64,000 nucleotides of DNA from Agathobacter rectalis (GTDB lineage: Bacteria > Actinomycetota > Coriobacteriia > Coriobacteriales > QAMH01), in NCBI GenBank assembly GCA_963590525.1, contig CAVAPV010000001.1, positions 45,680-109,679 of the forward strand, in the 5' to 3' direction. This document shows, in pieces, positions 45,101-63,191 of the stretch. A program made the position numbers and the translations under genes. Within the stretch, counting starts at the first letter, position 1. The number at the start of each line of letters is the position of its first letter. Below the pieces are notes generated by a model. That model was not told where the DNA came from. It saw nothing but the letters and a program-made list of their open reading frames with translations, and ran no database searches.

Positions 45101-45104
45101 GAGG

Positions 45105-46474: not shown

Positions 46475-46557
46475 GATTCTCGCGTTGCCGCTTGCGGGTG
46501 TTCCTGCACGCTTTTTGCTCGGTTGAGGTCGTTTGGCGAGAATTTCTACTTTTGTGC

Positions 46558-46588
46558 TTGTGCGTGACGTAGCGTCACCAGATAGCAT
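46558..46588 (+). promoter_or_regulatory. MerR-type promoter/operator P2 (upstream of the radical SAM gene)
   Basis: TTGTGC, 19-nt spacer, TAGCAT. The spacer contains TGACG-TAG-CGTCA (46565..46577) at the same register as P1. Confidence 0.6.
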
Positions 46589-46612
46589 CCCCTCCCAGCT
46601 TAGAGAGAGGAG

Positions 46613-47623: not shown

Positions 47624-47734
47624 ACGCGGGTGCGAGGCAAACCAAAAGCGACCCGCGGTAAGGCACGACTGGCTGCATGGCGCCGTCGTCGAGCGCAGCG
47701 GTGTAAACAAGAACGTAAGCAAGAGGAGAAACCT

Positions 47735-48721: not shown

Positions 48722-48750
48722 TTGCGTAGGGCAAGCTTTAAGTTGCGCAG

Positions 48751-49809
48751 ATGTTTGAGACACGAAGCATGAAGCAGACATCAACCTCACCCACGCGGCG
48801 CAACGCGCAAGCCATGCGCGGCCAGCGCATGGCGGCCATTGCCGTCGCGGCGGTACTGCTTGTGTGCGTTGCGGTTTTGGGTATAACAACGGGCTCGACG
48901 GCGGTCGGGTTGGGCGATGTGCTCGCACTCATAGCGGGAACCAACACCGATCAAACCGCTGCCAACGTCATCGTAAACATCCGCCTGCCCCGCGTGCTTG
49001 CGGCGCTGTTGGCCGGAGCGGCTTTGGCCCAGGCCGGCGCACTCATCCAGGCGGCGCTCGATAACCCGCTGGCCAGCCCCAACGTCATCGGCGTTAACGC
49101 GGGTTCCGGCTTCTTTGTGCTGCTAGCCGCATGCATGTTTCCCAATGCGTTTGCGTTGGCGCCGGCAGCAGCCTTCTTAGGTGCGCTTGTTGTGGCGGGG
49201 CTCATCTTTGGCGTGGCCAGGCTGGGTGGCTCGTCTAGGCTCACGGTGGTGCTGGCCGGTATGGCGTTTACTGCCATCTTTACCGCGGGCATGAACACCA
49301 TACTCATCGTCAACCCGGATGCTTACGTAGGGTCTTCGGGTTTTCTTACCGGCGGGCTTTCGGGCGTCAAGTTAAGCGAGGTCATCGTGCCGGGCATCGC
49401 CATCTGCATTGCGCTGCTTTTGGGGTTGCTGCAAGGCACGCGCCTCAACCTGCTGGCTTTGGGTGACCAGCAGGCGCATTCGTTGGGACTCAACGTGCAG
49501 CGTACGCGACTGGCCGCACTGGCGTGTGCGGCGGCGCTGGCCGGGTGCGCTGTGAGCTTTGCCGGGCTTGTGGGCTTTGTGGGGCTTATCGTTCCGCACG
49601 TTGCCCGTACCCTGACTGGCCACGACAACCGCAGCGTGTTGCTGGCATCGCCCATCATGGGTGCGTTGCTTGTGTGCCTGTGCGACCTGTTGGCACGTAC
49701 CTTGTTTGCCCCGTACGAGATTCCCGTGGGCATAGCGCTCTCCCTGCTTGGCGGGCCTTTCTTTGTGTATCTCATCTTGAAAAAGGGCAGGGGAGGGGTC
49801 AATGGGTAG
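48751..49809 (+). CDS. FecCD/BtuC-family ABC permease
   Basis: IRLPRVLAALLAGAALA, the GLVGFVGLIVPH motif and about 9-10 TM helices. Confidence 0.85.
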   Translation: MFETRSMKQTSTSPTRRNAQAMRGQRMAAIAVAAVLLVCVAVLGITTGSTAVGLGDVLALIAGTNTDQTAANVIVNIRLPRVLAALLAGAALAQAGALIQAALDNPLASPNVIGVNAGSGFFVLLAACMFPNAFALAPAAAFLGALVVAGLIFGVARLGGSSRLTVVLAGMAFTAIFTAGMNTILIVNPDAYVGSSGFLTGGLSGVKLSEVIVPGIAICIALLLGLLQGTRLNLLALGDQQAHSLGLNVQRTRLAALACAAALAGCAVSFAGLVGFVGLIVPHVARTLTGHDNRSVLLASPIMGALLVCLCDLLARTLFAPYEIPVGIALSLLGGPFFVYLILKKGRGGVNG

Positions 49810-50599
49810 CAAGTGCGATACTGCTGTGGGAGTGCGGCTCGACAACATCACCTTTGGCTATGCAGATAAGCCCTTGTTCAGCGAGTTCTCCCTTGAGTTT
49901 GCCGCGGGCAAGGTGACGAGCATTATCGGCCCCAACGGCTGCGGAAAATCGACGCTGCTCAAGCTTATGAGCGGCGCTTGCAAGCCCAGTGCCGGCAATG
50001 TTTGTGTTTGCGAAAGCGACATTGCCGCCCTGTCTGCCAAAGAGCGTGCCCGTCTTATAAGCCTGATGGCTCAAGAACATGCGGCGCCGCCCGTGAGCGT
50101 GAGGCAGCTTGTTGAGTTTGGCCGCTATCCCCATCATGGCGCCTTTGCCAAGCTAGCGGCGCAAGACTACGATGCCGTAGATCATGCACTCGAGGCAACG
50201 GGGCTTGCTTTACTGGCCGACGCAAACGTGACCGAGCTCTCTGGCGGGCAGCGTCAACGTGCCTTCATTGCCATGGCGCTGGCGCAAGATACGCCGGTGG
50301 TGCTTTTGGATGAGCCAACATCTTTCTTGGACGTTTGCGCCAACTACGACGTGATGGAGCTGATGCGCTCGCTCAAAAACGAGCATGGCAAAACCGTTAT
50401 CGCCGTGATCCACGACATCAACCTGGCGCTCAAGTACTCCGATGAGATCTGCGTGATGCGCGACGGCGAGCTGCTGGTGCAGGGTGCGCCTCATGAACCC
50501 CAGGTGCTAAGAGGGGTTGAACGCGCTTTTGACGTGCGCGCCGAGCTTTTGCACGGACAGCTGGGCAGCGCTTATGCTCTCTTCAAGAGCACTACGTAA
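49802..50599 (+). CDS. ABC ATP-binding protein (FepC/FecE/HmuV-like)
   Basis: GPNGCGKSTL, LSGGQRQRAFIAMAL, VLLDEPTSFLD, VIHD. Confidence 0.88.
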   Translation: MGSKCDTAVGVRLDNITFGYADKPLFSEFSLEFAAGKVTSIIGPNGCGKSTLLKLMSGACKPSAGNVCVCESDIAALSAKERARLISLMAQEHAAPPVSVRQLVEFGRYPHHGAFAKLAAQDYDAVDHALEATGLALLADANVTELSGGQRQRAFIAMALAQDTPVVLLDEPTSFLDVCANYDVMELMRSLKNEHGKTVIAVIHDINLALKYSDEICVMRDGELLVQGAPHEPQVLRGVERAFDVRAELLHGQLGSAYALFKSTT

Positions 50600-50772: not shown

Positions 50773-52452
50773 TTACTTGACTTTGACGGTGAAGGTCTTG
50801 GAGGCCGCGCTCTTGTAACCTGCGACCTCTGCGGCGGTCACGGTCACGGTGTAGGTACCCTTCTTGGTGCCCTTCTTGACGGTGACCTTGCCCTTCTTGG
50901 AGACCGTCACCTTCTTGGAAGAGGAGCTGTAGCTGATGGCGCCCTTGCTGGTGACGCTGGCCTTGATGTTGGCGGTCTTCTTGGACTTCTTGAGCTTGGC
51001 TGCCTTGAAGGTGACCTTCTTGGACTTGAGTGTCAGGGCGTTGTCTGCGATGCCCTCGGCGTATGCCAGATCACTGATAGCGCTCTTGACGTGCGTTACT
51101 TGCTCGAGCACGGCGGTCTCGGTTGCCTTGGTATTGGCCAGAAGCTCGGTGGCCTCGTCGAGCTCGTCTTTGAGGTTGGACCAGGAGTCTGCGGTGTAGT
51201 TGGACTCGATCAGGCTTTGTGCCTTGTCTATCTGGGCCTGCAGCTTGGCTTTGGTTGCCTTGGACGCAGCGCTAAAGTTGGCGAGGTTCTCTGTGCCGAT
51301 CTTGAAGATGGGCGTCGTGTAGTCCTTGTAACCCAGCGCGTGGACAGTGAGCGTCCAGTAACCGGTGCCGTCGTAGCCCTTGGGAAGCTCGAAGCGCTTG
51401 GACTCGGTCAGGCCCAGCTGGATGTGCATGATCTTGTGCATCCAGTTGTCTGCGGCAAACTTGGTGCCGTAGGTGCGCACAGCCTTGGTGCCGGTTTTGT
51501 CCTTGCCGTAGTAGGTCCAGGTCACAGCCTGGAGGTTAGCGCCCAAGTCGCCGTAGTTTGCGGCCAGGTCCACGCGGATCTTCTCGCCGTAGGCACCCAG
51601 AGAGATACCCTCCTCGATGGCCTCCTCGCTGCCGGCTACCAAGGTGTAGACGCCGTCTGTTGCATCGACGGACTTGGCGGTGGTTGCGGTCTTGAGCGCC
51701 TGGCCTGCGATGCCGCTGTCGGTCTGGGTTGCGCTCTCGTTTGCGGCAGAGAAGGAGAACGTGGTGCCGGACAACGTGGCGGTCTTGATGCCGTAGGTGG
51801 TCGCGGTCACGTTTGCGACGCCGCTGTAGGCCACCAGGTTCTTCTCGGTAAAGCCGCCGGCGATGGTAGAGCCGTTTTCTGTCACGTCAAAGCCCTTGGC
51901 GGCACGGTCTGCCTTGAAGGCCTCGTAATCGCTGGCCTTGACCTTGACGGGCACGTACTTGGTGCCGTAGACCTCGTAGTTGGTCATCGTGTAGGTGGAC
52001 TTGTCTGCCGTGGTCACAACGCCGTTGGCAAAGGTCGCCGTCTCGCCGCTGGTGGTGACAAAGGTCGTCTTGTCCTTCCAGTAGCTCACGGTAAAGTCCT
52101 TGGCGCTGCCATCGGCCGCGGTGGTGTGGATGGTGGCATTGCACTGGTAGCTGCCGCGATGCAGGCCGTGGTTGTAGGTTGCGCGTGACACGGCGTCAAA
52201 GCCGCCCAGGTCGGATTCTTCCTTTTGGTCCAGCTCGTCGCTTGAATCGGTGTTGGTGGCGTTGTAGACGCCCTCGGATGCCCAGTACTCGTCCCAGCTC
52301 AAGCCTGCATAGCAGTAGGTGTACTCGTCATCGGCGGCAAAGGCGCTTGTGATAGCGCTACCGCTTACGGTGGGGGCAAAGGCAACTGCCATGCCACCTG
52401 CCATCAAGGCGCAGGCGGCCTTTTTGGCCAGGGAATTTACGGTGATGGTCAA
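50773..52452 (-). CDS. secreted 559-aa surface protein (FIVAR-like helical module, Lys-rich Ig-like C-terminus, DAVSRAT motif)
   Basis: TTG start after GAGGAG, and a signal peptide (...AITSAFA/ADDEY). The C-terminus KKGKVTVKKGTKKGTYTVTV is shared with the 666-aa protein. Confidence 0.8.
   Translation of the reverse strand: MTITVNSLAKKAACALMAGGMAVAFAPTVSGSAITSAFAADDEYTYCYAGLSWDEYWASEGVYNATNTDSSDELDQKEESDLGGFDAVSRATYNHGLHRGSYQCNATIHTTAADGSAKDFTVSYWKDKTTFVTTSGETATFANGVVTTADKSTYTMTNYEVYGTKYVPVKVKASDYEAFKADRAAKGFDVTENGSTIAGGFTEKNLVAYSGVANVTATTYGIKTATLSGTTFSFSAANESATQTDSGIAGQALKTATTAKSVDATDGVYTLVAGSEEAIEEGISLGAYGEKIRVDLAANYGDLGANLQAVTWTYYGKDKTGTKAVRTYGTKFAADNWMHKIMHIQLGLTESKRFELPKGYDGTGYWTLTVHALGYKDYTTPIFKIGTENLANFSAASKATKAKLQAQIDKAQSLIESNYTADSWSNLKDELDEATELLANTKATETAVLEQVTHVKSAISDLAYAEGIADNALTLKSKKVTFKAAKLKKSKKTANIKASVTSKGAISYSSSSKKVTVSKKGKVTVKKGTKKGTYTVTVTAAEVAGYKSAASKTFTVKVK
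50858..50900. repeat. 43-nt perfect inverted-repeat arm (partner at 61312..61354)
   Basis: The reverse complement of 50858..50900 equals 61312..61354 base for base (CCAAGAAGGGCAAGGTCACCGTCAAGAAGGGCACCAAGAAGGG). Confidence 0.9.
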
Positions 52453-52527: not shown

Positions 52528-52543
52528 GTTAGCTTTAGCTAAC
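52528..52543. promoter_or_regulatory. candidate operator S1, GTTAGC-TTTA-GCTAAC
   Basis: Perfect 6+4+6 palindrome in the divergent intergenic region between the 559-aa protein gene and apbE. Confidence 0.45.
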
Positions 52544-52700
52544 TTGTACGGAGCGAGATGTTAGCACGGGCAAACTTAAGGTCAAGAGGGATTTTGGGCT
52601 AAAGGACGAAATCTGTTATTCGTCATGTGAGATAAATCAACAGATCGCTCCATTTGTCGTTTGACCGCGTGTTTTGCATGCGCCAATTCTGATAATCCTC

Positions 52701-52728
52701 TTGCCAGTTAGAGCTTTATCGCTAAAAT
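52701..52728 (+). promoter_or_regulatory. putative apbE-operon promoter
   Basis: TTGCCA, 16-nt spacer, TAAAAT, immediately followed by operator S2. Confidence 0.45.
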
Positions 52729-52744
52729 GTTTGCTTTAGCTAAC
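52729..52744. promoter_or_regulatory. candidate operator S2, GTTTGC-TTTA-GCTAAC
   Basis: One mismatch to S1. Abuts the -10 element, 43 nt upstream of the apbE ATG at 52787. Confidence 0.4.
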
Positions 52745-52786
52745 TATTTAGGCGTCTTAGGGCGCTGCTTTACAGCAAGGGTTTTC

Positions 52787-53845
52787 ATGCAGTTGTACAC
52801 ACGCAGACAGTTCGCATCGTTATTGGGATTGACGGCCGCCGTCGGCGCGTTTGGCGCGCTTGGTTGCTCGAGCGCAGCCTCGCAAGATCAGGCAGACAGC
52901 TCTTCTCAAGATGCCTCGGCTTGGCTTGAAGAGGATCCCAAGAGTGCGACGCTTTTTGTCTTTGACACCGTGGTGGAGCTTAGGGCCTATTGCTCGCAAG
53001 AGCTCATGGACCAAGCGGTAGAGCGCTGCAACTACTTTGAGGAGCGCTTCTCGCGCACTTTGGAGGGCAGCGATGTCTGGAACGTCAACCATGCTGCCGG
53101 CAAGCCCACGCAGGTTGCGCAGGAAACCGCCGATATCATCACCCAGTCGCTTGCGTATTGCGAGGCCTCAGAGGGTCTTTTTGACATCACCATCGGCGCC
53201 GTGAGCAGCCTTTGGGATTTTGTAGAGGGCGTCAAACCCGACGACGCAGATATCAAAGAGGCCATCAAGCACATCGACTACCGTGGCGTGATGGTGGACG
53301 GCACCACGGTCACGTTGGCAGACCCCAACGCCATGCTGGATCTGGGAGGTACCGCCAAGGGCTACATCGCAGATGCGCTCAAGACGCTCTTTACGCAGGG
53401 TGGCTGCGTGAGCGGCGTTCTCAACCTGGGTGGGCATGTGTGCCTCATCGGCTCCAAGCCTGATGGCAGCGATTGGAACGTTGGCGTGCAAGATCCCAAC
53501 GACGACGAGCAGGCGACCATCGCCTCGATCAAGCGCAGCGATATGTCTGTGGTGACAAGCGGCTTGTACGAGCGCCAGTTCAAAGCAGACGACGGCAAGA
53601 CCTACTATCACATCCTCGACCCCAAGACCGGCTATCCCGTCAAGACGGATTTGGTGAGCAGCTCTGTGGTGGGTGCGGACTCCTTGCAATGCGACGCGCT
53701 TGCAACGCTCATGTTCTTGCTGGGGCACGACAAAGCACTCGATCTGCTCAACACGACCGACGGCCTGGAGGGTCTTGTGGTCAGCAAGAAGACGGGCAAG
53801 GTTACCCAAAGCAAGGCCAAGGCGTTTACGTTGGCTGAGGATTAG
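52787..53845 (+). CDS. apbE: FAD:protein FMN transferase (ApbE/Ftp family), Tat-type lipoprotein
   Basis: ORF 52727..53845; the ATG at 52787 gives [73 protein letters not shown]. Confidence 0.85.
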   Translation: MQLYTRRQFASLLGLTAAVGAFGALGCSSAASQDQADSSSQDASAWLEEDPKSATLFVFDTVVELRAYCSQELMDQAVERCNYFEERFSRTLEGSDVWNVNHAAGKPTQVAQETADIITQSLAYCEASEGLFDITIGAVSSLWDFVEGVKPDDADIKEAIKHIDYRGVMVDGTTVTLADPNAMLDLGGTAKGYIADALKTLFTQGGCVSGVLNLGGHVCLIGSKPDGSDWNVGVQDPNDDEQATIASIKRSDMSVVTSGLYERQFKADDGKTYYHILDPKTGYPVKTDLVSSSVVGADSLQCDALATLMFLLGHDKALDLLNTTDGLEGLVVSKKTGKVTQSKAKAFTLAED

Positions 53846-53848
53846 CAC

Positions 53849-54298
53849 ATGGCAAAACCTGCAAAGAGCAAGGCGAGCATGAGAAACGTTGTAGCCGTTG
53901 GCGTTATCGTCGTGGTGGTGGCTGCGGCATTTGGCCTGTGGAGCGCCTTTGGGGCAAGCGCTGCCTCGCAGGCAAACGCGCTTGTGGCTGTGGTGCACGA
54001 CGGTGATGGCGGTACATACGAGTATGCCCTTGATACGGATGTGCAAGAGACCATAACCACGTCTTTGGGCAGCAACCTGGTGGTGGTAAGCGACGGTCGC
54101 GTGCATGTGCAGGAGGCCGACTGCCCCAATCACGATTGCATCAAGCAAGGAGAGATCGACACTCCGGGCCAGCAGATCGTGTGTCTGCCCCATAAGCTCT
54201 GGGTCGAGATCGTGAGCGCAGACAGTGCGTCGAGCACGCAGCAAGACGCGGCAAACGCAAACGCCGATGACGGCTCGTTTGATGTGAAATCGCGATAA
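53849..54298 (+). CDS. NusG-domain-II-like (DUF1312) membrane-anchored protein
   Basis: N-terminal TM helix, then ADCPNHDCIKQG...IVCLPHKLWVEI. Confidence 0.7.
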   Translation: MAKPAKSKASMRNVVAVGVIVVVVAAAFGLWSAFGASAASQANALVAVVHDGDGGTYEYALDTDVQETITTSLGSNLVVVSDGRVHVQEADCPNHDCIKQGEIDTPGQQIVCLPHKLWVEIVSADSASSTQQDAANANADDGSFDVKSR

Positions 54299-54302
54299 GG
54301 GC

Positions 54303-57077
54303 ATGGTCTGTAGCAGCATGCAGGGTGTGGATCGCAATCGCGTGCAGCGTATGGCGCAGTGCGCGCTCTTGGGTGCGCTGGCCTTGGTTTTGAGCTACAT
54401 AGAGACGATGATTCCTCTGCCCTTTGCCGTTCCCGGTATCAAGCTTGGGCTTGCCAATGCCGCTGTGCTCGTGGCGCTTTTGCTTGTTGACAGCCGCGCT
54501 GCTGTTGGGGTGGCGCTTGTCAAAGTGCTGGCAAGCGGCTTTCTCTTTGGAACGCCCACGATGCTGACTTACAGTGCCTGCGGCACAGTGCTTGCCGTTT
54601 TGGTGATGGTTGTCATGGCAAAGCCCTGCGGCTTGGGTGCCGTGCCCGTAAGCATGGCAAGCGCCATATGCCACAACATCGGCCAGTTAGCGGTAGCTGC
54701 GTTCATGTTGTCGAGCACGGCAGTTTTTGCGACCTTGCCCGTGCTGGCAGCGGCTGCATGCGTGACCGGTGCGATCATTGGCGTTGCAGCCCAAGGCGTG
54801 GTGAGTGCCTTGCAGGCAGATGCAGGTTGCGACCGCGTTCCGGTTGATTTGAGCGGCTTAGTGCTGCATCCCGGCGAGCATGTTGCCTTTGTGGGCGCCA
54901 ACGGCAGCGGTAAGTCTACGGCAGCGTTGCAGCTTGCAGGGCTGCTTGCGGCAGGTGTTGCAGCTGATGGAGCTGGCTTTGGGGCGGCAGGTGACCTTGC
55001 GCCGGTGCGCTTGGTGTTGCAGGATCCAACAAACCAGCTGGTCAAGGGTACGGTAGAAGATGATGTCGCTTTTGGCCCGGAGAATCTGGGCATGCCCTTG
55101 CCGCAGATGCGCAGCCTGGTGGCCAAGGCGATGGATGATATCGGCGTGCAAGAGCTTGCCGCAAGCGACGTCAACGAGTTGTCCGGTGGGCAGGGGCAGC
55201 AAGTGGCTATAGCCGGCGTTTTGGCTATGCAACCTGGGGTGATCGTCTTTGACGAGGCGACGTCGATGCTCGATATTGCGGCTCGCGCGCGCTTTGAGAC
55301 CCTGGTGGGAGAGCTGTGCGCGGCTGGCGTTGCCGTGGTGACGGTGACGCAGCATGCAAATGAGGCCCTTGCGGCGGATAGGGCCGTGCTGTTTGAGGCG
55401 GGCAAGATCTCCTACATCGGCACGCCCGCCTGTGCGCTGTCCAAGCTTGAGGCGGATATGTTGCCTGCATGCAATTGCGACGCGCTGCAAGAAGACGCGA
55501 CTGCTAGCGATGCTCCTGCTGCAGACGCGGGTGTGGCCGTGGGCGATGACGCAACTGCAGATGCTGTCGAGAAAGACCGCGCTTTGCGCTGCGACGGGCT
55601 ATGCGTTGCCTACCCAGGCAGCAACGCGCGCGTTTTGGATGGCGTGTCTTTGAGCATTGAACCCGGTTGTGTGCTGGGGCTTACAGGGCCTTGCGGCGGC
55701 GGCAAGTCGACGCTGGCACGCGCGCTTGCGGGCTATCTTTTGCCAGAAGAGGGTGCAGTGCAGCTTGACGGGCTTTGCCTGAGTGCAACGCGCGAGGTGC
55801 AAGACGCCTATCGTCGTAAAGTCGCTTGTGTCGATCAGCGCCCCGAGCAAGCCCTCTTTGCGCAGACAGCCTTTGACGATGTGCTTTTTGGGGCCTTGAA
55901 CTTGGGCTTGGACGATGACGAGGCGCAAGCCAGGGCAGCAGCAGCGCTTGAGGCGGTGGGTGTCGACCCTGATCAGGCCAAGGAGAAAAGCCCGTTTAGC
56001 TATTCCGGCGGCGAGCAGCGACGCATTGCCATTGCGGGAATGCTCGTGCTCAATACCCCGTATCTGATATTTGACGAGCCTTGCGCCGGCCTTGACCCGC
56101 ATGAGCTGCGCCGTTTGGCTAGGCTCATTGCCAAGCTGCGCCAAGAGGGCAAGGGCATCTTGCTCATCGCCCACGACGATGCGTTTTTGCGGGCTTGTGC
56201 GGATAGCGTTGTCGAGGTTTCTGCATTGGGTGCCTCTATGCAGCAGCAAAGCGATTCATGCGCGCGCGTCCCGCGCCGCGTGCCAGCTCGCTTTGGCCGC
56301 TATGTGTCTGGCAGCTCGTTTATGCACAACCTGGATGCACGTGCAAAACTCGTGCTTTGCTTGCTGTATATGGTTGCGGGCTTTGTTGCGCAGGATTGGC
56401 TGGCCTTGGGCTTGGTTGCGCTTTTTGGTGCGGGAATGCTTGCTGCGGCAAAGACCACGCCGCGCCAAGCATGGGCTGCTTTTAGGCCCTTTATAGGGCT
56501 CATGGTTTTTGTGGGCCTCTTTGACCTCTTCTTTACCGGCGGCGATGACGTTTGGTGGCAAGCGGGCCCTCTTTGCGTGAGCGGGCAGAGTGCCTCATTT
56601 GCCGCGCAGTCTGTTTTGCGTTTTGCGCTTGTGGCCATTGCCACCTCGACCTTGATGGCAACCACGAGCGCCACGCAGCTTGGCGATGGTTGCACGGCAT
56701 TGCTCGAACCTTTGCGCCGCTTGGGGGTGTGCATTGACGATGTGGCGCTTTCTTTGAGCATGACCTTGCGTTTTGTCCCGCTGGTCCAAGGCGAGTTCTT
56801 TGCTGTCAAGCGTGCGCAGGAGGCGCGTTTAGCGCGCTTTAACAGCGGTAGCGTGGCACAGCGCGTAAAAGCGTACGGCCCGGTGTTCGTGCCGCTTTTT
56901 GCCGGCTGTCTGCGCCGTAGCCAAGACCTTGCCTTGGCAATCCAAAACCGCGCCTATGGTTGCGTTGCCGCGCGCAGCCGTTACCGCAAGCTCTCTGTGG
57001 GTGCTGCCGATGCGGCTGCGTTGCTATTGACGTTAGCGCTTGTCATCGCTGTGATTGCCTTGAGGGCCATCGCCTAG
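54303..57077 (+). CDS. single-polypeptide ECF-type transporter: Gx-transporter (Hpre_diP_synt_I-like) TM domain + EcfA + EcfA' + EcfT
   Basis: 924-aa uninterrupted frame.
- aa 17-170: PGIKLGLANAAVL-type TM domain.
- aa 178-385: ABC domain (GANGSGKST, LQDPTNQ, LSGGQGQQ, VIVFDEAT).
- aa 427-640: second ABC domain (GPCGGGKST, YSGGEQRR, YLIFDEP, LIAHD).
- aa 665-924: CbiQ/EcfT-like domain (MHNLDARAKL..., SMTLRFVP, AIQNRAY). Confidence 0.8.
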   Translation: MVCSSMQGVDRNRVQRMAQCALLGALALVLSYIETMIPLPFAVPGIKLGLANAAVLVALLLVDSRAAVGVALVKVLASGFLFGTPTMLTYSACGTVLAVLVMVVMAKPCGLGAVPVSMASAICHNIGQLAVAAFMLSSTAVFATLPVLAAAACVTGAIIGVAAQGVVSALQADAGCDRVPVDLSGLVLHPGEHVAFVGANGSGKSTAALQLAGLLAAGVAADGAGFGAAGDLAPVRLVLQDPTNQLVKGTVEDDVAFGPENLGMPLPQMRSLVAKAMDDIGVQELAASDVNELSGGQGQQVAIAGVLAMQPGVIVFDEATSMLDIAARARFETLVGELCAAGVAVVTVTQHANEALAADRAVLFEAGKISYIGTPACALSKLEADMLPACNCDALQEDATASDAPAADAGVAVGDDATADAVEKDRALRCDGLCVAYPGSNARVLDGVSLSIEPGCVLGLTGPCGGGKSTLARALAGYLLPEEGAVQLDGLCLSATREVQDAYRRKVACVDQRPEQALFAQTAFDDVLFGALNLGLDDDEAQARAAAALEAVGVDPDQAKEKSPFSYSGGEQRRIAIAGMLVLNTPYLIFDEPCAGLDPHELRRLARLIAKLRQEGKGILLIAHDDAFLRACADSVVEVSALGASMQQQSDSCARVPRRVPARFGRYVSGSSFMHNLDARAKLVLCLLYMVAGFVAQDWLALGLVALFGAGMLAAAKTTPRQAWAAFRPFIGLMVFVGLFDLFFTGGDDVWWQAGPLCVSGQSASFAAQSVLRFALVAIATSTLMATTSATQLGDGCTALLEPLRRLGVCIDDVALSLSMTLRFVPLVQGEFFAVKRAQEARLARFNSGSVAQRVKAYGPVFVPLFAGCLRRSQDLALAIQNRAYGCVAARSRYRKLSVGAADAAALLLTLALVIAVIALRAIA

Positions 57078-57213
57078 CAGTTGGAGACGTGAAGCCGGCG
57101 CCCTCTGCCAGGTGGCGGATGTCTGACCCTGCCTGCGTTTTGCCGCCCATCTGCCTTGGGGCAAAAATTTCCCAGATGCTTGGGGCGATTGTGGTAATCT
57201 GCTCAGTCTGTGA

Positions 57214-57229
57214 GTTATCTATTGCTAAC
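57214..57229. promoter_or_regulatory. candidate operator S3, GTTATC-TATT-GCTAAC
   Basis: One arm mismatch; 37 nt upstream of the GTG at 57266. Confidence 0.35.
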
Positions 57230-57265
57230 TCTTTATCACCTGCTACTAGAGCGAGGAGAGTGCTT

Positions 57266-57712
57266 GTGAACAGCCATGCCGCGGTCAAGAACTTCATAGC
57301 AAAGGCTTGCTGCCTTGCGGCCGTGGTGGCCTGCATCGTCTCCTTTAGCAATTGGGCTGCTGCGGTCAATAGCGCAGACGCCCAGGTCCAAGCGCAGATC
57401 GATGCCGCCGAGCGTGCCAGCCAGCGCGGTCCTTTTGACGTGGCCGACGGCACCTATACCGGCAGTGCCAAAGGTTACGGCGGCGATGTCGTGGTGAGTG
57501 TGACGGTAAGCAACGGCTATATCGACAAGCTCGAGCTGGTGAGCGCCAAAGACGAAGACGAGGCTTGGCTCAAGATGGCCGTTAAGCTTTTGGATACCAT
57601 TCCCGCCAAGCAGACGACCGACGTCGACGTCATCAGCGATGCTACCTACAGCTCCGCCGGCATCATCAACGCTACGCGCAATGCCCTCAAAGACGCACCC
57701 AAGGCGCAGTAA
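57266..57712 (+). CDS. membrane-anchored FMN_bind-domain protein (RnfG/NqrC-type flavinylation target)
   Basis: ORF 56960..57712; the GTG at 57266 follows GAGGAGAG. TM anchor, then DGTYTGSAKGYGGDVVVSVTVSNGYI...DVDVISDATYSSAGI. Confidence 0.75.
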   Translation: MNSHAAVKNFIAKACCLAAVVACIVSFSNWAAAVNSADAQVQAQIDAAERASQRGPFDVADGTYTGSAKGYGGDVVVSVTVSNGYIDKLELVSAKDEDEAWLKMAVKLLDTIPAKQTTDVDVISDATYSSAGIINATRNALKDAPKAQ

Positions 57713-57714
57713 CC

Positions 57715-59004
57715 ATGGCGGCGCAAGACATGACATCAAACAGAGCCTTGGCTAGCGACACATCGCAGGATGCGTTCTGCGATGCGGATATCCTGGATGA
57801 TATGCCCCGTCGCCTGCCCAAGTTTACTTGCTGCGATAGCTGCGAGGGCTGCGGCGCCTGTGCTGGCGAAGTTGCGACAGCAGACAGGAACACAGCTCAA
57901 GAGCCCAAATCCAACGCAGCCCAAAAGGCAGGGGCAAAGGCCAAAGCCAAAGCTGAGCCCAAGTCCAAGCGTTCCAAACCTAAGAAGGGCTCTGCGGCAT
58001 GGAAGAGGCAATGTGACCAACGTATCCACACGGTAGTGCGCTTTATCGTCCAGATTGCCTTCTTTGTCTTGGCCCCTGGCTTGTTTAGCAGCGCGCTCAA
58101 CGGCGTCAAGTACATCTGCACGCAGATCGGCGCTGTGCAGGCAATCGAGCCTGGCTCCTTTGTCGCGGTGCTTGTTGCCGCAGTGGCTTACACGGTGCTC
58201 TTTGGGCGTTTCTTTTGCGGTTACGCCTGCGCGTTTGGAACCATGGGCGACGTGCTCTTTGGTCTTTTTACGCCGCTGCGAAAACTGCTCCATATCCCTA
58301 GCTTGCAAGGTTATCCTCGTTTGCTCTCATGCTTGCAGGCGTTCAAGCTCGTGGTCTTGGCCGCCGTATGCGCGCTGTGCTTTACGGGTTTTTGGGATGC
58401 CGTTGCCGCATACAGCCCCTGGACGGTCTTTGGCAAGGTGACAAGCGGTGCGGGCTTTGGGGGCGTTGCCATAAAGGGTATTTGCGTTCTTGCCTGCATC
58501 ATGCTGATGCAGGGCCTCTTTGAGCGCTCCTTTTGCCGCTTCTTGTGCCCTATGGGCGCGCTTTTCTCACTGTTGCCCGTGTTGCCATTCTCTCAGTTCA
58601 ATCGCAGACGCGAAGCTTGCGCAAAAAGCTGCAACCGCTGTCAGGATGCCTGTCCGGTAGACATCCACCCAGATCAAGGGAGCTTTCATGCGGGGGAGTG
58701 CATCTCGTGTGGCAGATGCGCTGTTGGCTGCCCGATAAGCAACGTGAACCTCGTCTACGTTCCCGAGTTGCCCGCCGCTGCCTCTGCAGGTGAATCTGCC
58801 GATAAGCAGGCCGATAAATCTGCCGATGAAAAAGCCGCAAAAAAGCCCACAAAGCCCCAGGCACTTGTCAAGTGGCGCGGCAGCGGTGTGCCCACGGTGC
58901 TGGTTAAGGCTTTGGTCTTGCTTGCTGTGTGCTGGCTGGTGGGTTTGCTGCGCTTTGCGCCATCGCCCGCCGATGTCTTGCCCTTTGCCCTGCCCTGGAT
59001 GTAG
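57715..59004 (+). CDS. NapH/MauN-like membrane polyferredoxin (4Fe-4S binding) with a Cys-rich, Lys-rich N-terminal extension
   Basis: FFCGYACAFG, CRFLCPMGA, CNRCQDACP and CISCGRCAVGCP, with several TM helices. N-terminal CCDSCEGCGAC. Confidence 0.78.
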   Translation: MAAQDMTSNRALASDTSQDAFCDADILDDMPRRLPKFTCCDSCEGCGACAGEVATADRNTAQEPKSNAAQKAGAKAKAKAEPKSKRSKPKKGSAAWKRQCDQRIHTVVRFIVQIAFFVLAPGLFSSALNGVKYICTQIGAVQAIEPGSFVAVLVAAVAYTVLFGRFFCGYACAFGTMGDVLFGLFTPLRKLLHIPSLQGYPRLLSCLQAFKLVVLAAVCALCFTGFWDAVAAYSPWTVFGKVTSGAGFGGVAIKGICVLACIMLMQGLFERSFCRFLCPMGALFSLLPVLPFSQFNRRREACAKSCNRCQDACPVDIHPDQGSFHAGECISCGRCAVGCPISNVNLVYVPELPAAASAGESADKQADKSADEKAAKKPTKPQALVKWRGSGVPTVLVKALVLLAVCWLVGLLRFAPSPADVLPFALPWM

Positions 59005-59025
59005 GGGAAGCAGCTCGGATCGATT

Positions 59026-59054
59026 CGCAGGTGCGAGTAGGGGAGAGCATTGCT
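59026..59054. repeat. 29-nt intergenic motif, copy B (CGCAGGTGCGAGTAGGGGAGAGCATTGCT), overlapping the hairpin GGGAGAGC-ATT-GCTCTCCC
   Basis: Matches 14829..14857 at 26 of 29 positions. Confidence 0.5.
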
Positions 59055-59146
59055 CTCCCGCGTAGGCTGCAACATCGTGCGCTGTACGAGCGCCGGCATG
59101 TTTCTGTGCCCGCTAAGAAAAGCAGAAATTAATTGGAATCATGTTA

Positions 59147-59162
59147 GTTAGCTTATGCTAAC
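59147..59162. promoter_or_regulatory. candidate operator S4, GTTAGC-TTAT-GCTAAC
   Basis: Perfect arms, in the AT-rich region upstream of the 666-aa protein gene. Confidence 0.4.
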
Positions 59163-59417
59163 ATTGCGCCCGCAGATGATATTTGCTGCTGCGCTGGTAA
59201 GCGCATCTAAGGCGATTCTCGTCTTTAGAGCTATTCCAAACTAATAACTGTATAGCTTTTGACCTGCGCATATGCTGCATAGCTGCTGCATTCCCAAAAA
59301 CGCGTAGGTAAAGGCGGAGGACCTGTGGGTGCGTGCAAGGCAATGCAATACATGCGCTGCCGCACTAGGTTTCTCAAACGACGGAATCTGTGAGAGAGAT
59401 TCAGAAAGCGAGGGATC

Positions 59418-61418
59418 GTGATAGACGACAAGACCTACGTGTTTGATGCCAGCAAGCCTTTTGCAAGGCGCACGTCTAGCAAGGCTGCCAAAGCCGGAGT
59501 CTTTGCGTTGGCGGCGGCATTGGGCATGATGACCGTGCCTGTACAGGCGTTTGCAAGCTATTTGCCTCAGACCGGCACCGGCAAGGCCGTCATGAGCTCC
59601 ACGGGTGACAGCTGGGATAACCAGCTCAAGAAGCTTGGCGTTGCAAAGAACGCTGATGGCACCAAAACCGCTTCTTACACCGGCATCGCGCATAGCGATT
59701 TGATCCATTACTCCGCCTACGGGCTTACAACGCAGGTTACCTTTGACTCCAAGGGCACCGTCACGGCAATCAACCTCACAAGCGGCAACGAGACCTTTGC
59801 CGGTGCGTGGGGTTACAAGAACGTAGGCAAGCAGGTGGCTGCTATCGACGGCTACCTGCCTGACGGTTGCTCGCTTGACGTTACGGGTAATCGCAAGGAC
59901 GGTTTCACGCCTGCCATCGTTAGCAAGACGGGCCTGAGCACGAGTTTTGCCGGTTTGGCATATTACTCGGTGGATGCAAACGGCAAGGCTACCGCGGTGA
60001 CCCCCAAGACGACCACGAGCGCCTCTGGGGGCAATAGCGGCGGCAAGGCGCGTCCGGGCGCAGCCGCCACCACGTATGACGACTGGGATTACAAGAGCGG
60101 TAAGCTCATGGTGACCGATGATAGCGTCAACGTCGTATGCGTTACCTTTAGCATCGGCGCGGAGTCCGCAATCAAATTCAACACCTATTTCTGCATCGCT
60201 CAAGACGGAACCGTCGATACGGACAGCGCAAGCGCGGCTAACAAGTATCTTGATACGCTTGCGGCAACCACGTGGGATGCGACGCCTGCTCTTGCCGGCA
60301 CCATGGCCGAGACCAATCGCGACAAGTGGACGCTCGTGATGGCAACGGTCAACCTGCAGCGCCAGCTGCTCTCGTGGAGCGAAAGCATTAAAAGCGGCTT
60401 TGAGGCAGCAGGCGAGGTGAGCGATCTTGACACGATCTCTGGTGCAACAAAAACATCCGAGCCGTTTGTTGCCGCGCTCAATCAGGCTTACACGGATGGC
60501 TACATCAAATCTGTAGCCGATAACGTCAAGCTGACCATCGACGGCGGTACTTCCAACGCCATCGACGTCAATGCCAATCCAGCGGACCGCTCCAGCGTAA
60601 GCAAGGACAGCTCGGGCAACTACGTGCTCACTAACGTCTTTCCCTATGGCGAAGATCGCACGGAAGTGCACGGAACCACATTGGATACGATCGAGACGTA
60701 TGCGATTGAAGGCGATGTGAGCACGGCAGAGATCGCAAAGATCGCCAAGGGCCGCAGCGACTACCAGCCGCTTAGCTCATACAGCCCCAAGATGGTAATC
60801 GGTTACGAAGAAGATGATGGCGACCCCATTTATTCCGAAGGATGGCCCGACTTCAAGGATCTGAGCGGGGATATCGATGTCGACTACGATGCAAGCGATG
60901 GCACGGCCCCAATCAAGGTGACGGTCAACAACAAGAAGATCACTCATCTGGCGCTTACCTACACCATAGGACACGGTACCATCACCATGGTGTACGACTT
61001 GAAGCAGATGGAGGCTGCAGCCAAGGTCACAGCCCAGATTAAGTCTATGAAGGCCAACAACGTCAAGCAGGTTGCAGCAGCGCGCAAAGCTTACAACGCG
61101 CTTTCAACCGACGTCCGCGGGTTTGTAACCAACATCGACAAGCTGGTCAAGGCAGAGGCAAATGCAGCCGTCACTGTCACGCCCGCAAGCAAGAGCTTCA
61201 AGGCCTCGGTGCTCAAGAAGGGTGCCAAGAGCTTTAGCGTCAAGGTCAAGGGGTCGACTGCTACAGCGACCTTTAGCGTGGCAAAGTCGAGCAAGAAGGT
61301 TTTGAGCGTGACCAAGAAGGGCAAGGTCACCGTCAAGAAGGGCACCAAGAAGGGAAGCTACAAGCTCTCTGTCAAAGTCGGCAGCGTTTCTAAGACGATT
61401 GCCGTCAAGGTTAAGTAA
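59418..61418 (+). CDS. secreted 666-aa surface protein with an internal FMN_bind-type flavinylation site and a Lys-rich Ig-like C-terminus
   Basis: GTG start after GAGGGA, signal peptide (...VPVQAFA/SY), canonical DTISGATKTS at 60429..60449, C-terminal KKGKVTVKKGTKKGSYKLSV. Confidence 0.8.
   Translation: MIDDKTYVFDASKPFARRTSSKAAKAGVFALAAALGMMTVPVQAFASYLPQTGTGKAVMSSTGDSWDNQLKKLGVAKNADGTKTASYTGIAHSDLIHYSAYGLTTQVTFDSKGTVTAINLTSGNETFAGAWGYKNVGKQVAAIDGYLPDGCSLDVTGNRKDGFTPAIVSKTGLSTSFAGLAYYSVDANGKATAVTPKTTTSASGGNSGGKARPGAAATTYDDWDYKSGKLMVTDDSVNVVCVTFSIGAESAIKFNTYFCIAQDGTVDTDSASAANKYLDTLAATTWDATPALAGTMAETNRDKWTLVMATVNLQRQLLSWSESIKSGFEAAGEVSDLDTISGATKTSEPFVAALNQAYTDGYIKSVADNVKLTIDGGTSNAIDVNANPADRSSVSKDSSGNYVLTNVFPYGEDRTEVHGTTLDTIETYAIEGDVSTAEIAKIAKGRSDYQPLSSYSPKMVIGYEEDDGDPIYSEGWPDFKDLSGDIDVDYDASDGTAPIKVTVNNKKITHLALTYTIGHGTITMVYDLKQMEAAAKVTAQIKSMKANNVKQVAAARKAYNALSTDVRGFVTNIDKLVKAEANAAVTVTPASKSFKASVLKKGAKSFSVKVKGSTATATFSVAKSSKKVLSVTKKGKVTVKKGTKKGSYKLSVKVGSVSKTIAVKVK
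61312..61354. repeat. 43-nt perfect inverted-repeat arm (partner at 50858..50900)
   Basis: See the partner entry. Confidence 0.9.
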
Positions 61419-61446
61419 AAAGACCTGCTCTTTGACCGAGGGCACG

Positions 61447-61476
61447 AGGAGGCGAGCATCGCTCGCCTCCTTTTGT
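61447..61476 (+). terminator. rho-independent terminator
   Basis: AGGAGGCGAGC-ATC-GCTCGCCTCCT followed by TTTGTGTG. Confidence 0.7.
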
Positions 61477-61652
61477 GTGCCTAAAAAGTTAGCCTCTCCT
61501 AAAATTCCTGCACAAAGATACTAGACAACGTCCACTAAAAGTACATAATGCATAGTCGGCTTTTTGATATAGGTGCGATTTGCAATATGTGGGGATCGCT
61601 TCGTTATCGTCAAACCAAGCCGATTTCGTACTTTTAAGAGAAAGAGGGATTA

Positions 61653-63191
61653 ATGGACTTCAGTACTGGAATCTTCTTTTGGGGATTCATGATCGTCTAC
61701 GGCATCGTGATGTTTGCGTTGTCGCCCAAGACGGTCAATCTGGGAGGCTTCTTTCGCGGCGAGGACAAGCAGGGCAAGGACTGCAACCCGTGGATGATCA
61801 CCGCCTCCATCTTTATCGCATGGATCTTTGCTAAATCTGTCACCAACGCCGCCAACATGGGCCAAAGCTTTGGCATCGTGGGCGGTATCGGCTATGCCGT
61901 GTATTGGCTGTGCATCCCGCTGACCGGCTATGCGCTGTATCGCCTGCGCCGCAAGTTTGGCGCCAAGGGCATGGTGAGCTTTCTGACCGAAAACTACGGC
62001 GTCGCCGCGGCCTTCTGCTTTAGCGCTGCCATCTTGGTGCGCCTCTTTAACGAGGTCTGGTCCAACACCAGCGTCATCGGTTCTTACTACGGCACCAGCG
62101 GCACCATGCCGTTTATTCTCGCGGCATTGCTGTTTACTGCCATCACCGTTTTGTACTGCTGCTGGGGCGGCATGCGCGGCTCCATCGTCACCGACGTCTT
62201 GCAGGCCATCCTGTTTGCCGTGCTCATGCTGGTCGTTATCTTCTGGGTTATCCCGCAAGACGGCGTGGGTGCCATCGCCACCAGCGGCAGCTGGACGCTG
62301 GAAGGCGGCGTCGACTTCATCATAGGCGCCGCGCTGCAGTGCCTGTCCTACGGCTTCCATGACGCCGTGCTCACCGACCGCGGCTTCCTTTGCCGCCCCA
62401 AGAAGATGCTCAAATGCTACATCGCCGCAGGCCTGCTGGGCTTTGTCGCCATCGTGCTCTTCTCCACCATCGGCGTGCACTCCTATCTCAACAGCATGGC
62501 TCAAAGCGGCACCGACGCCCCCATCGTCGTTGCGCAGTCCTTGGGTATCGCGGCTTTCTTCATGATGGCCGTCATCATGATCGCCACCGCAGGCTCCACG
62601 CTTGACTCCACCTTTACGGCGCTGTCCAAGCTCACTGCACGCGATCTGCCCGGCATCTTGGGTAAGAAGCCCAAGATGAACCCCCGTATCATCGGCATCA
62701 TCTTCATGATCATCTTTGGCATCGTGGGCAACCTGCCCATGATCATGGGCGCGAGCATCATCACCGCTACCACCATCAGCGGCACGATGATCATGGGCTT
62801 GGGCCCCATCTTCTTGCTGCACGGCGCAGGCCCCATCAAGCCCACCAAGGTCGGCTTCATGCTGGCGTTTTGGATCGGCATGATCTTGGGTATCTGGGAC
62901 GTCGTCAACGCTGCGTCTTTGGGCTTCATGAACATCGGTGCAGGCAAGTACGCCAACTTCTTGGGCGTCAACCTCTACGGCGCCATCGTCTGCTGGCTGG
63001 CCTACATCATCCCCGGCGTTATTGCCAGCTCCAAAGAGAAGGCTGCAGGCATCGAGCCTACTTGGAAGGGCCTTTCCAAAGAGGAGCTTGCACGCCTGGA
63101 CAAGCTCGAGGACGAGGGTGCGGAGTATATTCCGGAATACGACCCCATCGAGAAAGACCCCAAGTGGGTCAACGAGTACCAGGGCGCATAA
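61653..63191 (+). CDS. sodium:solute symporter (SSS) family transporter
   Basis: 512-aa polytopic membrane protein. The N-terminal pattern (GGFFRGEDK...WMITASIFIAWIFAKSV) and about 13 TM helices fit an SSS-like topology. Substrate unknown. Confidence 0.7.
   Translation: MDFSTGIFFWGFMIVYGIVMFALSPKTVNLGGFFRGEDKQGKDCNPWMITASIFIAWIFAKSVTNAANMGQSFGIVGGIGYAVYWLCIPLTGYALYRLRRKFGAKGMVSFLTENYGVAAAFCFSAAILVRLFNEVWSNTSVIGSYYGTSGTMPFILAALLFTAITVLYCCWGGMRGSIVTDVLQAILFAVLMLVVIFWVIPQDGVGAIATSGSWTLEGGVDFIIGAALQCLSYGFHDAVLTDRGFLCRPKKMLKCYIAAGLLGFVAIVLFSTIGVHSYLNSMAQSGTDAPIVVAQSLGIAAFFMMAVIMIATAGSTLDSTFTALSKLTARDLPGILGKKPKMNPRIIGIIFMIIFGIVGNLPMIMGASIITATTISGTMIMGLGPIFLLHGAGPIKPTKVGFMLAFWIGMILGIWDVVNAASLGFMNIGAGKYANFLGVNLYGAIVCWLAYIIPGVIASSKEKAAGIEPTWKGLSKEELARLDKLEDEGAEYIPEYDPIEKDPKWVNEYQGA

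Follow-up and report, generated by a model that had tools for sequence, protein, structure and literature searches.

Regulators of the DtxR/IdeR family in Corynebacterium and Mycobacterium carry out metal-dependent repression of iron-acquisition genes by way of a classical box, TTAGGTTAG(G/C)CTAACCTAA, that overlaps promoters (PMC1382209). This 19-bp odd palindrome consists of two interleaved units, each of them a TTAG-N6-CTAA palindrome, with a 5-bp offset between them. In crystal structures of DtxR and IdeR with DNA, two dimers bind the classical box on opposite faces. Below, we describe sites with the same TTAG/CTAA cores, the same N6 spacing and the same promoter overlap at a gene cluster that resembles two classes of flavin-based systems, and we propose that they serve the same function.

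The first of these classes is the NapH-like flavinylation system, which is defined by the presence of a PF12801 NapH-like protein in a gene cluster associated with flavinylation (ApbE/FMN_bind) (Meheust et al., 2021; PMC8238504). That survey ties NapH-like systems to respiratory oxidoreductases, reports no regulator for them, makes no mention of Tp47-like partners, and notes iron control only for PepSY-like clusters, via Fur. In contrast, the present cluster includes a Tp47-like protein, and we propose that its control is of the DtxR type. The second class is flavin-based extracellular electron transfer in Listeria (FmnB/PplA, ECF flavin transporters; PMC9973259), which, like the present cluster, encodes an ECF-type transporter together with an ApbE-type flavin transferase and an FMN-binding protein that is secreted. 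The Ndh2/EetAB/Dmk module of Listeria is absent here, and a NapH-like polyferredoxin and Tp47-like proteins stand in its place. We are not aware of any connection of DtxR with the Listeria locus.

The cluster lies in a 64-kb stretch of DNA (the window) for which a first-pass annotation had already named the genes, and Pfam matches agree with those calls. The minus strand encodes a secreted 559-aa Tp47-like protein (PBP-Tp47 domains a and c, FIVAR; 50773..52452). Encoded on the plus strand are an ApbE FAD:protein FMN transferase with an RRxF twin-arginine signal and a lipobox (52787..53845, true start ATG 52787), a NusG_II-domain membrane protein (53849..54298), a 924-aa single-chain ECF-type transporter with an Hpre_diP_synt_I-like membrane domain, two ECF ATPase domains and a CbiQ T-component (54303..57077), a secreted FMN_bind protein (57266..57712), a NapH-like polyferredoxin membrane protein (Fer4_5; 57715..59004), and a secreted protein of 666 aa that matches FMN_bind weakly and contains the flavinylation-type motif DTISGATKTS (59418..61418). 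Pfam places the PF12801 NapH-like protein alongside ApbE and a separate FMN_bind protein, as in the NapH-like class. All seven genes are predicted to be regulated through palindromes in their promoter regions. We consider it likely, from the sequence comparisons given below, that five such palindromes are operators, that the protein binding them is a metal-dependent repressor from the DtxR/IdeR/MntR family that acts as a homodimer and has its gene at another place in the genome, and that iron scarcity derepresses the cluster.

Four of these palindromes (S1 through S4) were found by direct rescan with the coordinates and sequences first assigned to them, and a fifth, at 52560-52575, had been overlooked. 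None is assigned a strand. The Tp47-like promoter carries a tandem pair comprising O1 (GTTAGCACGGGCAAAC; 52560..52575; 21.5 bits), which is conserved in related loci L002 and L003, and O2, which is S1 (GTTAGCTTTAGCTAAC; 52528..52543; 25.6 bits); the two are 32 bp apart within one divergent intergenic region. The apbE promoter carries S2 (GTTTGCTTTAGCTAAC; 52729..52744; 26.9 bits). Site S3 (GTTATCTATTGCTAAC; 57214..57229; 21.0 bits) ends 36 nt before the FMN_bind start codon of the FMN_bind/NapH-like unit, and S4 (GTTAGCTTATGCTAAC; 59147..59162; 29.5 bits), at the promoter for the 666-aa protein, is 255 nt from the start codon. The extended consensus of the five 16-bp palindromes is aW-GTTAGC-N4-GCTAAC-Wt. 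Matches with at most one mismatch number 5 in the window versus 0.09 expected from 100 dinucleotide shuffles of it, none of which reached 5. Allowing two mismatches adds one weak match, also without strand, before an SSF transporter gene (GTTAGCCTCTCCTAAA; 61488..61503; 2 mismatches; 14.5 bits), 18 nt upstream of the predicted promoter TAGACA-16-CATAAT. Because 2.17 matches are expected by chance at this stringency, we regard this site as doubtful.

The positions of the palindromes relative to predicted promoter elements fit a repressor. A consensus scan places the Tp47-like promoter at 52558..52585 on the minus strand, with a -35 element TTGACC (52585-52580), a 16-nt spacer, and a TG-extended -10 element TAACAT (52563-52558) that corresponds to the operator half-site GCTAAC plus AT. 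O1 occupies the -35/-10 spacer and overlaps the -10 (TTGACC-16-TGcTAACAT), and O2 begins 14 nt downstream of the -10. This layout recurs in related loci L002, L003, L016 and L028, and the order -35/O1/-10/O2 is found in nine Coriobacteriia promoters. The scan also recovers the apbE promoter TTGCCA-16-TAAAAT (52701..52728, plus strand) that had been reported to abut S2; its elements are kept in L002 as TTGCCA and TAGAAT, and S2 begins immediately after the -10 to span the predicted start site. For the FMN_bind/NapH-like unit, a candidate extended -10, TGgTAATCT (57192..57200, plus strand), comes from reading the sequence and is not detected by the consensus scan. An extended -10, TGcTAACAT (59156-59164), sits inside the right half of S4. 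Thus, the strong sites all overlap or directly follow a -10 or transcription start, as judged from promoters and starts predicted by consensus, which is the arrangement that a repressor fits.

The same placement bears on whether the metal-bound regulator might instead activate some units, or act in both directions. DtxR of Corynebacterium glutamicum activates ftn and dps in this way, expression of both genes being lowered in a dtxR mutant (PMC1382209). Although S4 and the weak 61488 site are distant from their start codons, as such an action might allow, positions on or directly after the -10 are incompatible with classical activation, and tandem O1/O2 clamps are typical of repression. We therefore consider positive or dual action very unlikely. 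We also rejected a MerR-type operator: the promoter spacers around GTTAGC sites measure 16-17 bp, versus the over-long 19-20 bp that such an operator, a dyad centred in the spacer with its regulator gene close by, requires. The MerR of the window has other dyads, GTGACG-N3-CGTCAC, within 19-bp spacers, and the island that holds it is missing from related locus L002. The Peripla_BP_2/FecCD/ABC importer adjoining the cluster lacks a GTTAGC-type site and carries its own MerR operator instead, which counts against our reading.

Footprinting in orthologous clusters, which the first-pass annotation had proposed as a check, bears out the motif. The sample comprises the window and 80 related Coriobacteriia loci, all ApbE-anchored (1.285 Mb). 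It yields 111, 52 and 37 matrix matches at thresholds of at least 13, 16 and 20 bits, compared with 2.65, 0.55 and 0 in a first-order Markov simulation. Nearly all of the matches (98/111) lie no more than 400 bp upstream of homologues of the Tp47-like protein, ApbE, the 666-aa protein, FMN_bind or ECF. The motif is kept upstream of these families in 50 of the 81 loci, rearranged gene order notwithstanding, including those of Adlercreutzia equolifaciens, Collinsella and Senegalimassilia. For example, sites precede FMN_bind homologues in L005, L008, L025 and L028, and homologues of the 666-aa protein in L005, L008, L019 and L028. When the window is aligned with L002 and L003, the operators are near-invariant while the flanks have diverged. 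The motif accompanies these gene families from one genus to another, however the genes are ordered, and this supports the earlier proposal that the four transcription units form one regulon. The proposal of a shared operator for a dimeric regulator likewise gains support from sequence. The suggestion that this regulator is encoded outside the cluster also holds, in that no transcription factor gene adjoins any site in the window or the 80 related loci.

These data leave almost no room for the palindromes being products of chance, repeat elements or RNA hairpins of the attenuator or terminator kind. Perfect copies can form 6-bp hairpins, but the z-scores of these folds are modest (-2.2 to -2.75). 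The arms show 47 one-sided changes versus 8 compensatory ones, which argues for a DNA operator and not an RNA hairpin. Moreover, sites occur in either orientation relative to the gene and have no T-tract, and there is no Rfam match in the cluster. The arm-change pattern, together with the very strong enrichment over both shuffles and Markov simulation, refutes a stem-loop, repeat or chance origin.

The motif had been described as specific to this cluster, which it is not. A metagenome scan for the tandem motif returned 120 contigs, of which the named ones belong to gut Clostridia, including Dysosmobacter and Gemmiger. There, the same tandem palindrome precedes feoA/feoB and DtxR-family genes, and it also adjoins flavodoxin and nrdI genes. 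A FeoA, FeoB or DtxR-family gene lies no more than 1.5 kb away in 61 of the 120 contigs; neighbors within this distance include FeoA (54), FeoB (30) and a protein of ~120 aa with Fe_dep_repress and Fe_dep_repr_C domains (26). Since the motif stands at Clostridial iron genes, the flavin cluster probably belongs, as one branch, to a broader iron regulon.

The closest counterpart is the Clostridial DtxR-family 'metal-dependent transcriptional regulator' of ~120-125 aa whose gene adjoins feoAB in Dysosmobacter, Gemmiger and other Oscillospiraceae, whose sites share an identical consensus and tandem arrangement with those in Coriobacteriia. The consensus GTTAGC-N4-GCTAAC derives from 50 Coriobacteriia and 212 metagenome sites, and its 12 conserved core positions are identical in the two groups. 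The preferred tandem spacings (29, 32 and 34 bp) also match, with the metagenome distribution being constrained by the search pattern. Clostridial feoA promoters read TTGACA-O1-TATAAT followed by O2 ~10 nt on, such that both groups place O1 within the promoter spacer and O2 past the start site. The Coriobacteriia differ in that O1 is shifted by ~4 bp and the half-site itself supplies the -10 (TAACAT). Furthermore, the Clostridial regulator gene adjoins its own sites, which serve feoA/feoB, flavodoxin and nrdI as targets, whereas the targets seen in Coriobacteriia are the flavinylation cluster. A literature search found no paper describing a GTTAGC-N4-GCTAAC operator.

The operator itself is of a known kind, and it is the regulon content that is new. 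The TTAG/CTAA half-site cores lie about one helical turn apart, the motif is linked elsewhere to a DtxR-family regulator gene, as in autoregulation, and to metal-uptake genes (61/120 contigs), and the sites overlap the -10 or transcription start on consensus promoter predictions. The sites are nevertheless not classical double-dimer boxes. Each is a single 16-bp even palindrome, one TTAG-N6-CTAA, with four unconserved central bases and no second TTAG pair offset by 5 bp. Unlike on the classical box, paired dimers here would each have a site of their own, with 29-34 bp between the two sites and both dimers on one face of the DNA. We also rejected a Rex operator. The Rex consensus is TTGTGAA-N4-TTCACAA, in which GTG/GTT and CAC/AAC cores are 8 bp apart, and Rex targets fermentation and respiration genes; the arrangement here is GTT-N10-AAC, and the genes linked elsewhere concern iron rather than redox.

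Classical DtxR/IdeR has a C-terminal SH3/FeoA-like domain that is missing from the likely regulator, which in its size and two-domain architecture resembles MntR of Bacillus subtilis, its top match among solved structures (1.9e-21). Some sources label this regulator 'Mn-dependent' (JGI: 'Mn-dependent DtxR family'). With operator and regulator family unchanged, the sensed metal might then be manganese, in the manner of MntR/TroR. NrdI, which belongs to Mn-type ribonucleotide reductase, is among the neighbors of motif sites, and a few regulator members carry Asn or Asp in place of the Met in EMYLE. However, this Met is present in most of the regulators and invariant in a 35-sequence profile, and the Cys in DACxIEH is present in all of them. 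MntR aligns with Asp and Glu at these positions, such that the ligands are of the DtxR rather than the MntR type. Presumably, the Met/Cys set represents iron-type ligands, as in the DtxR iron site formed by M10, C102, E105 and H106. In addition, MntR controls Mn importers and not feoAB, and no MntH- or MntABC-type Mn importer is among the recurrent families identified beside the sites. Among the neighbors, feoA/feoB and flavodoxin predominate, and these genes are characteristic of iron limitation. On balance, manganese sensing appears unlikely.

Alternatively, a dimeric winged-helix repressor from another family, for instance of the MarR type, could recognize the Coriobacteriia palindrome and respond to a flavin, quinone or redox signal, in which case the likeness to the Clostridial iron box would have arisen by convergence. 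Half-sites of the TTAG type also serve certain MarR proteins, SlyA and MepR among them. DtxR-family, FeoA and FeoB genes are absent from the window and the 80 related loci, and profile searches with the regulator identified no Coriobacteriia member among the matches listed, where the named ones are Clostridial. Likewise, the Coriobacteriia sites all fall in the flavin cluster, with none at an obvious iron gene. These loci are all ApbE-anchored, however, and the sampling is thereby confined to the surroundings of apbE, away from any iron genes at other places in the same genomes. Convergence would also have to account for the 12 core positions, the tandem spacings and the O1/O2 placement shared with Clostridia, which makes this alternative quite improbable. 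The presence of an orthologous DtxR-family regulator in Coriobacteriia, iron as its metal and repression as its action are all inferences on our part.

According to this proposed mechanism, one Fe2+-bound dimer would occupy O1 at the Tp47-like promoter, in the -35/-10 spacer and overlapping the -10, and a second Fe2+-loaded dimer would bind O2, which lies three helical turns from O1 and immediately beyond the start site. At the promoters of apbE, the FMN_bind/NapH-like unit and the 666-aa protein, a single dimer would mask the -10 or the start region. Occupancy of the operators would keep RNA polymerase out. Under iron scarcity, the repressor would lose its metal and leave the DNA, permitting co-expression of the whole extracytosolic flavinylation and electron-transfer cluster.

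What the regulated proteins do together is a more tentative matter. The NapH-like polyferredoxin, ApbE, the single-chain ECF transporter, the secreted FMN proteins and the Tp47-like surface proteins may form one system induced by iron starvation, although we hold this with somewhat less than even confidence. Such a system could take up iron reductively, as a ferric reductase outside the cell, or it could save iron by putting flavins in the place of haem electron carriers. If true, either role would be the first physiological role for Tp47-like domains and for this class of NapH-like flavinylation cluster. Our reading places a flavinylation cluster that has been poorly understood so far in an iron-starvation regulon, and suggests that gut Coriobacteriia turn on a flavin-based electron-export cluster under iron scarcity.

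The four GTTAGC-N4-GCTAAC palindromes reported by the first-pass annotation (S1, 52528-52543; S2, 52729-52744; S3, 57214-57229; S4, 59147-59162) are all present exactly as described, but their number is not four. A fifth site, GTTAGCACGGGCAAAC (52560-52575), lies between the divergently transcribed Tp47-like gene and apbE, at a distance of 32 bp from S1. When one mismatch is allowed, the 64-kb window carries five matches, all inside the 6.6-kb flavinylation cluster, compared with 0.09 expected from dinucleotide shuffles, none of which reached five. Extended by its flanking positions, the consensus reads aW-GTTAGC-N4-GCTAAC-Wt, and its centre shows no conservation. If two mismatches are allowed, one more match, GTTAGCCTCTCCTAAA, lies at 61488, ahead of an SSF transporter gene (61653-63191); this weak match is within chance expectation. 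It stands directly after a terminator-like hairpin, GGAGGCGAGC-atc-GCTCGCCTCC followed by TTTTGTG, on the 3′ side of the gene for the 666-aa protein (hairpin and match together, 61441-61503).

The gene calls made earlier for the cluster hold as stated. It encodes a secreted Tp47-like protein (50773-52452, minus strand), an ApbE lipoprotein whose true start is at 52787, a NusG_II protein, an ECF transporter, a secreted FMN_bind protein, a NapH-like polyferredoxin, and a secreted protein of 666 aa that matches FMN_bind weakly and carries a flavinylation-type motif, DTISGATKTS. A sequence search with the 666-aa protein against solved structures gave no match. We know of no clear physiological role for Tp47-like proteins. 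The ECF transporter is a single chain of 924 aa (54303-57077) in which a Hpre_diP_synt_I-like membrane domain, two ECF ATPase domains and a CbiQ T-component are fused as a whole system, and the same parts form two or three genes in several related loci. The Tp47-like protein and the 666-aa protein have in common a lysine-rich C-terminal segment, …KKGKVTVKKGTKKG(T/S)Y…VKVK (encoded at 50773-50950, minus strand, and 61270-61418, respectively), which suggests that they share a surface-anchoring or repeat module. The gene content fits the uncharacterised ‘NapH-like’ flavinylation systems, which are widespread and mostly lack an assigned function; the same survey describes iron (Fur) control only for PepSY-like clusters (Meheust et al., 2021; PMC8238504). 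ApbE homologues place the organism in uncultured Coriobacteriia; the closest relatives are 75-97% identical, and the named relatives at about 54-58% identity belong to Senegalimassilia, Adlercreutzia, Paratractidigestivibacter and Eggerthellaceae.

The arrangement of the sites relative to predicted promoters is consistent. A consensus scan recovers the TTGCCA-16-TAAAAT promoter that had been said to abut S2; it ends at 52728, and thus S2 begins one base past the −10 element. On the minus strand, the same scan predicts a promoter with TTGACC, a 16-bp spacer and a TG-extended TAACAT (52585-52558). The spacer of this promoter is filled by the fifth site, here called O1, and its −10 element is formed by the half-site GCTAAC plus AT, whereas S1 serves as the second operator, O2, and begins 14 nt downstream of the −10. 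This layout, in which a −35 element is followed by 4 nt, O1 with an embedded TAACAT or TAACTT, 14-16 nt and then O2, recurs in eight related ApbE-anchored loci (L002, L003, L016, L028, L005, L008, L019 and L079). Reading of the sequence places an extended −10, TGcTAACAT (59156-59164), within S4, and TGgTAATCT (57192-57200) 13 nt ahead of S3. The start sites predicted for the four units lie at about 52551 on the minus strand and at about 52735, 57207 and 59171 on the plus strand. Because the sites lie at or next to predicted −10 elements, a protein bound at any of them would be expected to block RNA polymerase, and with start sites predicted in this way every site is placed to do so when occupied.

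Conservation was assessed in 80 ApbE-anchored loci from species-representative genomes with a strict-pattern scan, followed by a scan with a 20-bp matrix built from sites with at most one mismatch. In 1.285 Mb the matrix yields 111, 52 and 37 matches at thresholds of at least 13, 16 and 20 bits, respectively, versus 2.65, 0.55 and 0 expected from a first-order Markov simulation; the strongest matches include the training sites, and the weaker ones are independent of them. Phylogenetic footprinting, which the first-pass annotation had proposed as a check, finds the motif conserved upstream of cluster homologues in 50 of the 81 loci (the window included), with 98 of the 111 matches within 400 bp upstream of such genes (Tp47-like, 63; ApbE, 18; the 666-aa protein, 11; FMN_bind, 5; ECF gene, 1). 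The motif tracks genes rather than positions. For example, Collinsella and several Eggerthellaceae have one long operon from the Tp47-like gene to the ECF gene with sites only ahead of the former, and Adlercreutzia carries sites ahead of apbE, the gene for the 666-aa protein and FMN_bind. When the window is aligned with L002 and L003 (80% and 75% ApbE identity), the operators are almost invariant and the flanks have diverged. Thus, the four transcription units were rightly interpreted as one regulon, given that the motif follows the same gene families across rearranged loci, and the proposal of a shared trans-acting dimeric regulator is likewise supported. An RNA hairpin or riboswitch is ruled out by the 47 one-sided versus 8 compensatory changes in the arms and by an Rfam search of the cluster that gave no match. 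We therefore read the element as double-stranded DNA.

Which protein binds these sites? The remainder of the window holds housekeeping genes, and its only transcription factor is a MerR protein (45716-46474). This candidate was rejected, as it has its own GTGACG-N3-CGTCAC-type operators and its island is missing in L002, where the GTTAGC sites are kept. The motifs of Rex, CRP/FNR, LysR and GntR-type proteins presumably differ from the palindrome in spacing or symmetry, a comparison that serves as a lead only. A lead to the regulator family comes from half-site likeness to the classical DtxR box, TTAGGTTAG(G/C)CTAACCTAA (PMC1382209). This box can be parsed into two TTAG-N6-CTAA palindromes, one shifted by 5 bp against the other, and the motif here corresponds to exactly one such unit. 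The sites are not classical 19-bp double-dimer boxes, and belong to the DtxR family in a broad sense.

A metagenome scan independent of Coriobacteriia, for the tandem form GTTAGC-N4-GCTAAC-N(12-20)-GTT-N10-AAC, returned 120 contigs with GC contents from 0.28 to 0.73 that are not flavin clusters. Most prominent among the genes directly downstream are those for FeoA (54 contigs), FeoB (30) and a protein of about 120 aa with Fe_dep_repress and Fe_dep_repr_C domains (26). At least one of FeoA, FeoB or this small regulator lies within 1.5 kb of the sites on 61 of the 120 contigs, many of which are short. Contrary to the first-pass claim, the motif is thus not specific to the flavin cluster. Other genes following the sites encode flavodoxin, NrdI, DUF2325, DUF3793 and ECF-type modules. 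Exact look-ups assign tandem-site contigs to Dysosmobacter welbionis, Gemmiger formicilis and other Clostridia. Clostridial feoA promoters, with TTGACA, 0-1 nt, O1, TATAAT, about 10 nt and O2, have the same two-operator design as those of Coriobacteriia, and the commonest tandem spacings in both groups are 28-29 and 32-34 bp, although the metagenome range is limited by the search pattern. The operator of small DtxR-family regulators beside feoAB in Clostridia matches the sites studied here. Literature searches on the motif, on small DtxR regulators with feoA, and on DtxR in Eggerthella or Coriobacteriia returned nothing relevant, and this operator of gut Clostridia is apparently undescribed.

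On three contigs, tandem boxes precede other kinds of genes. In L197 (2431-3820), from a Firmicute of low GC content (0.45), they precede a NusG_II and Hpre_diP_synt_I-like pair, and thus part of a flavin-trafficking module lies behind this operator outside Coriobacteriia as well. In L171 (4519-7910) and L157 (1077-8204) they lie upstream of operons for ECF-type transporter parts and paired ABC exporters that also include either a secreted protein of 234 aa or a small divergent regulator; these operons may likewise belong to the Clostridial iron regulon.

Databases name the small regulator ‘metal-dependent transcriptional regulator’ or ‘Mn-dependent DtxR family’, and its profile matches the structures of MntR (1.9e-21), DtxR (2.8e-19) and also IdeR. 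Aligned to Bacillus subtilis MntR, it has Met in place of an MntR Asp (EMYLE versus EDYIE) and Cys in place of an MntR Glu (DACxIEH). The Cys never varies, and the Met is constant throughout a 35-sequence profile, though not in every site-linked member. Met and Cys together form what we take to be an iron-type ligand set, as in the DtxR site M10/C102/E105/H106. This ligand set and a regulon of feoAB, flavodoxin and nrdI point to Fe2+ as the sensed metal, with manganese a minor alternative.

Neighbour listing, clustering, BLAST and HMM searches found no regulator gene near any site in the 81 loci, and no DtxR-family regulator gene was found in the window and the 80 Coriobacteriia loci. A profile search of 5.8 billion proteins gave no Coriobacteriia regulator among the best 120, of which the named ones are all Clostridial; a representative-library search puts the family at 11,332 clusters at 50% identity. 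For 20 candidates with a high-GC-like composition, the names that exact look-ups returned are from Clostridia or Bacillota only. The 12 core positions, the tandem spacing and the promoter placement are the same in both groups, and on these we base the proposal that an orthologous DtxR-family repressor binds at the Coriobacteriia sites. We consider it probable that the sites are DtxR-family iron boxes that repress the flavin cluster.

The MerR promoters (45640-45670 and 46558-46588) have 19-bp spacers with the dyad GTGACG-N3-CGTCA(C/T) and form a self-contained unit of regulation, separate from the GTTAGC boxes and not related to them. That of merR is TTGACG-19-GATAAT, and that of the adjoining NirJ2-like radical SAM gene is TTGTGC-19-TAGCAT. 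The island (45716-50599) encodes MerR, a NirJ2-family radical SAM/SPASM protein (TIGR04055, 525.9 bits versus a cut-off of 500) and a Peripla_BP_2/FecCD/ABC importer. It sits between opp-like ABC genes and the Tp47-like gene, is missing at the same place in L002, and may handle haem or another tetrapyrrole. No iron box was found in the island, and the importer, which adjoins the cluster, has no GTTAGC-type site. At the island edge are two small adjoining ORFs of about 105 and 87 aa (44816-45368, minus strand), one without a Pfam match, that may be a toxin-antitoxin-like pair. Elsewhere, a tRNA-Sec gene (15202-15294, minus strand; Rfam RF01852, 66.5 bits) adjoins SelA (16381-17871, minus strand), which indicates that the organism uses selenocysteine. 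A low-GC stretch at about 22000-29500 (0.47-0.53 versus about 0.60) is possibly acquired DNA; on it lie the genes for an AAA_14/DUF4143 ATPase (21979-23190, minus strand) and a GGDEF protein (27499-29421), with an unannotated ORF of 1276 aa (23475-27305) between them.

The new part of the finding is the regulon content: an entire NapH-like flavinylation cluster, its Tp47-like and FMN-binding surface proteins included, seems to be iron-controlled throughout Coriobacteriia. The cluster has two putative roles, either as an extracellular flavoprotein chain that acquires iron reductively or as an iron-sparing substitute for haem carriers. The operator and promoter design is now defined for a small DtxR-family regulator that is very common in gut Clostridia and apparently undescribed, which helps to predict regulons in microbiome genomes. 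Moreover, the apparent iron box is conserved in gut Coriobacteriia that include cultivable Adlercreutzia and Collinsella, which makes the function of the cluster experimentally approachable and offers a cheap and direct way into a widespread gut-bacterial system that is so far uncharacterised.
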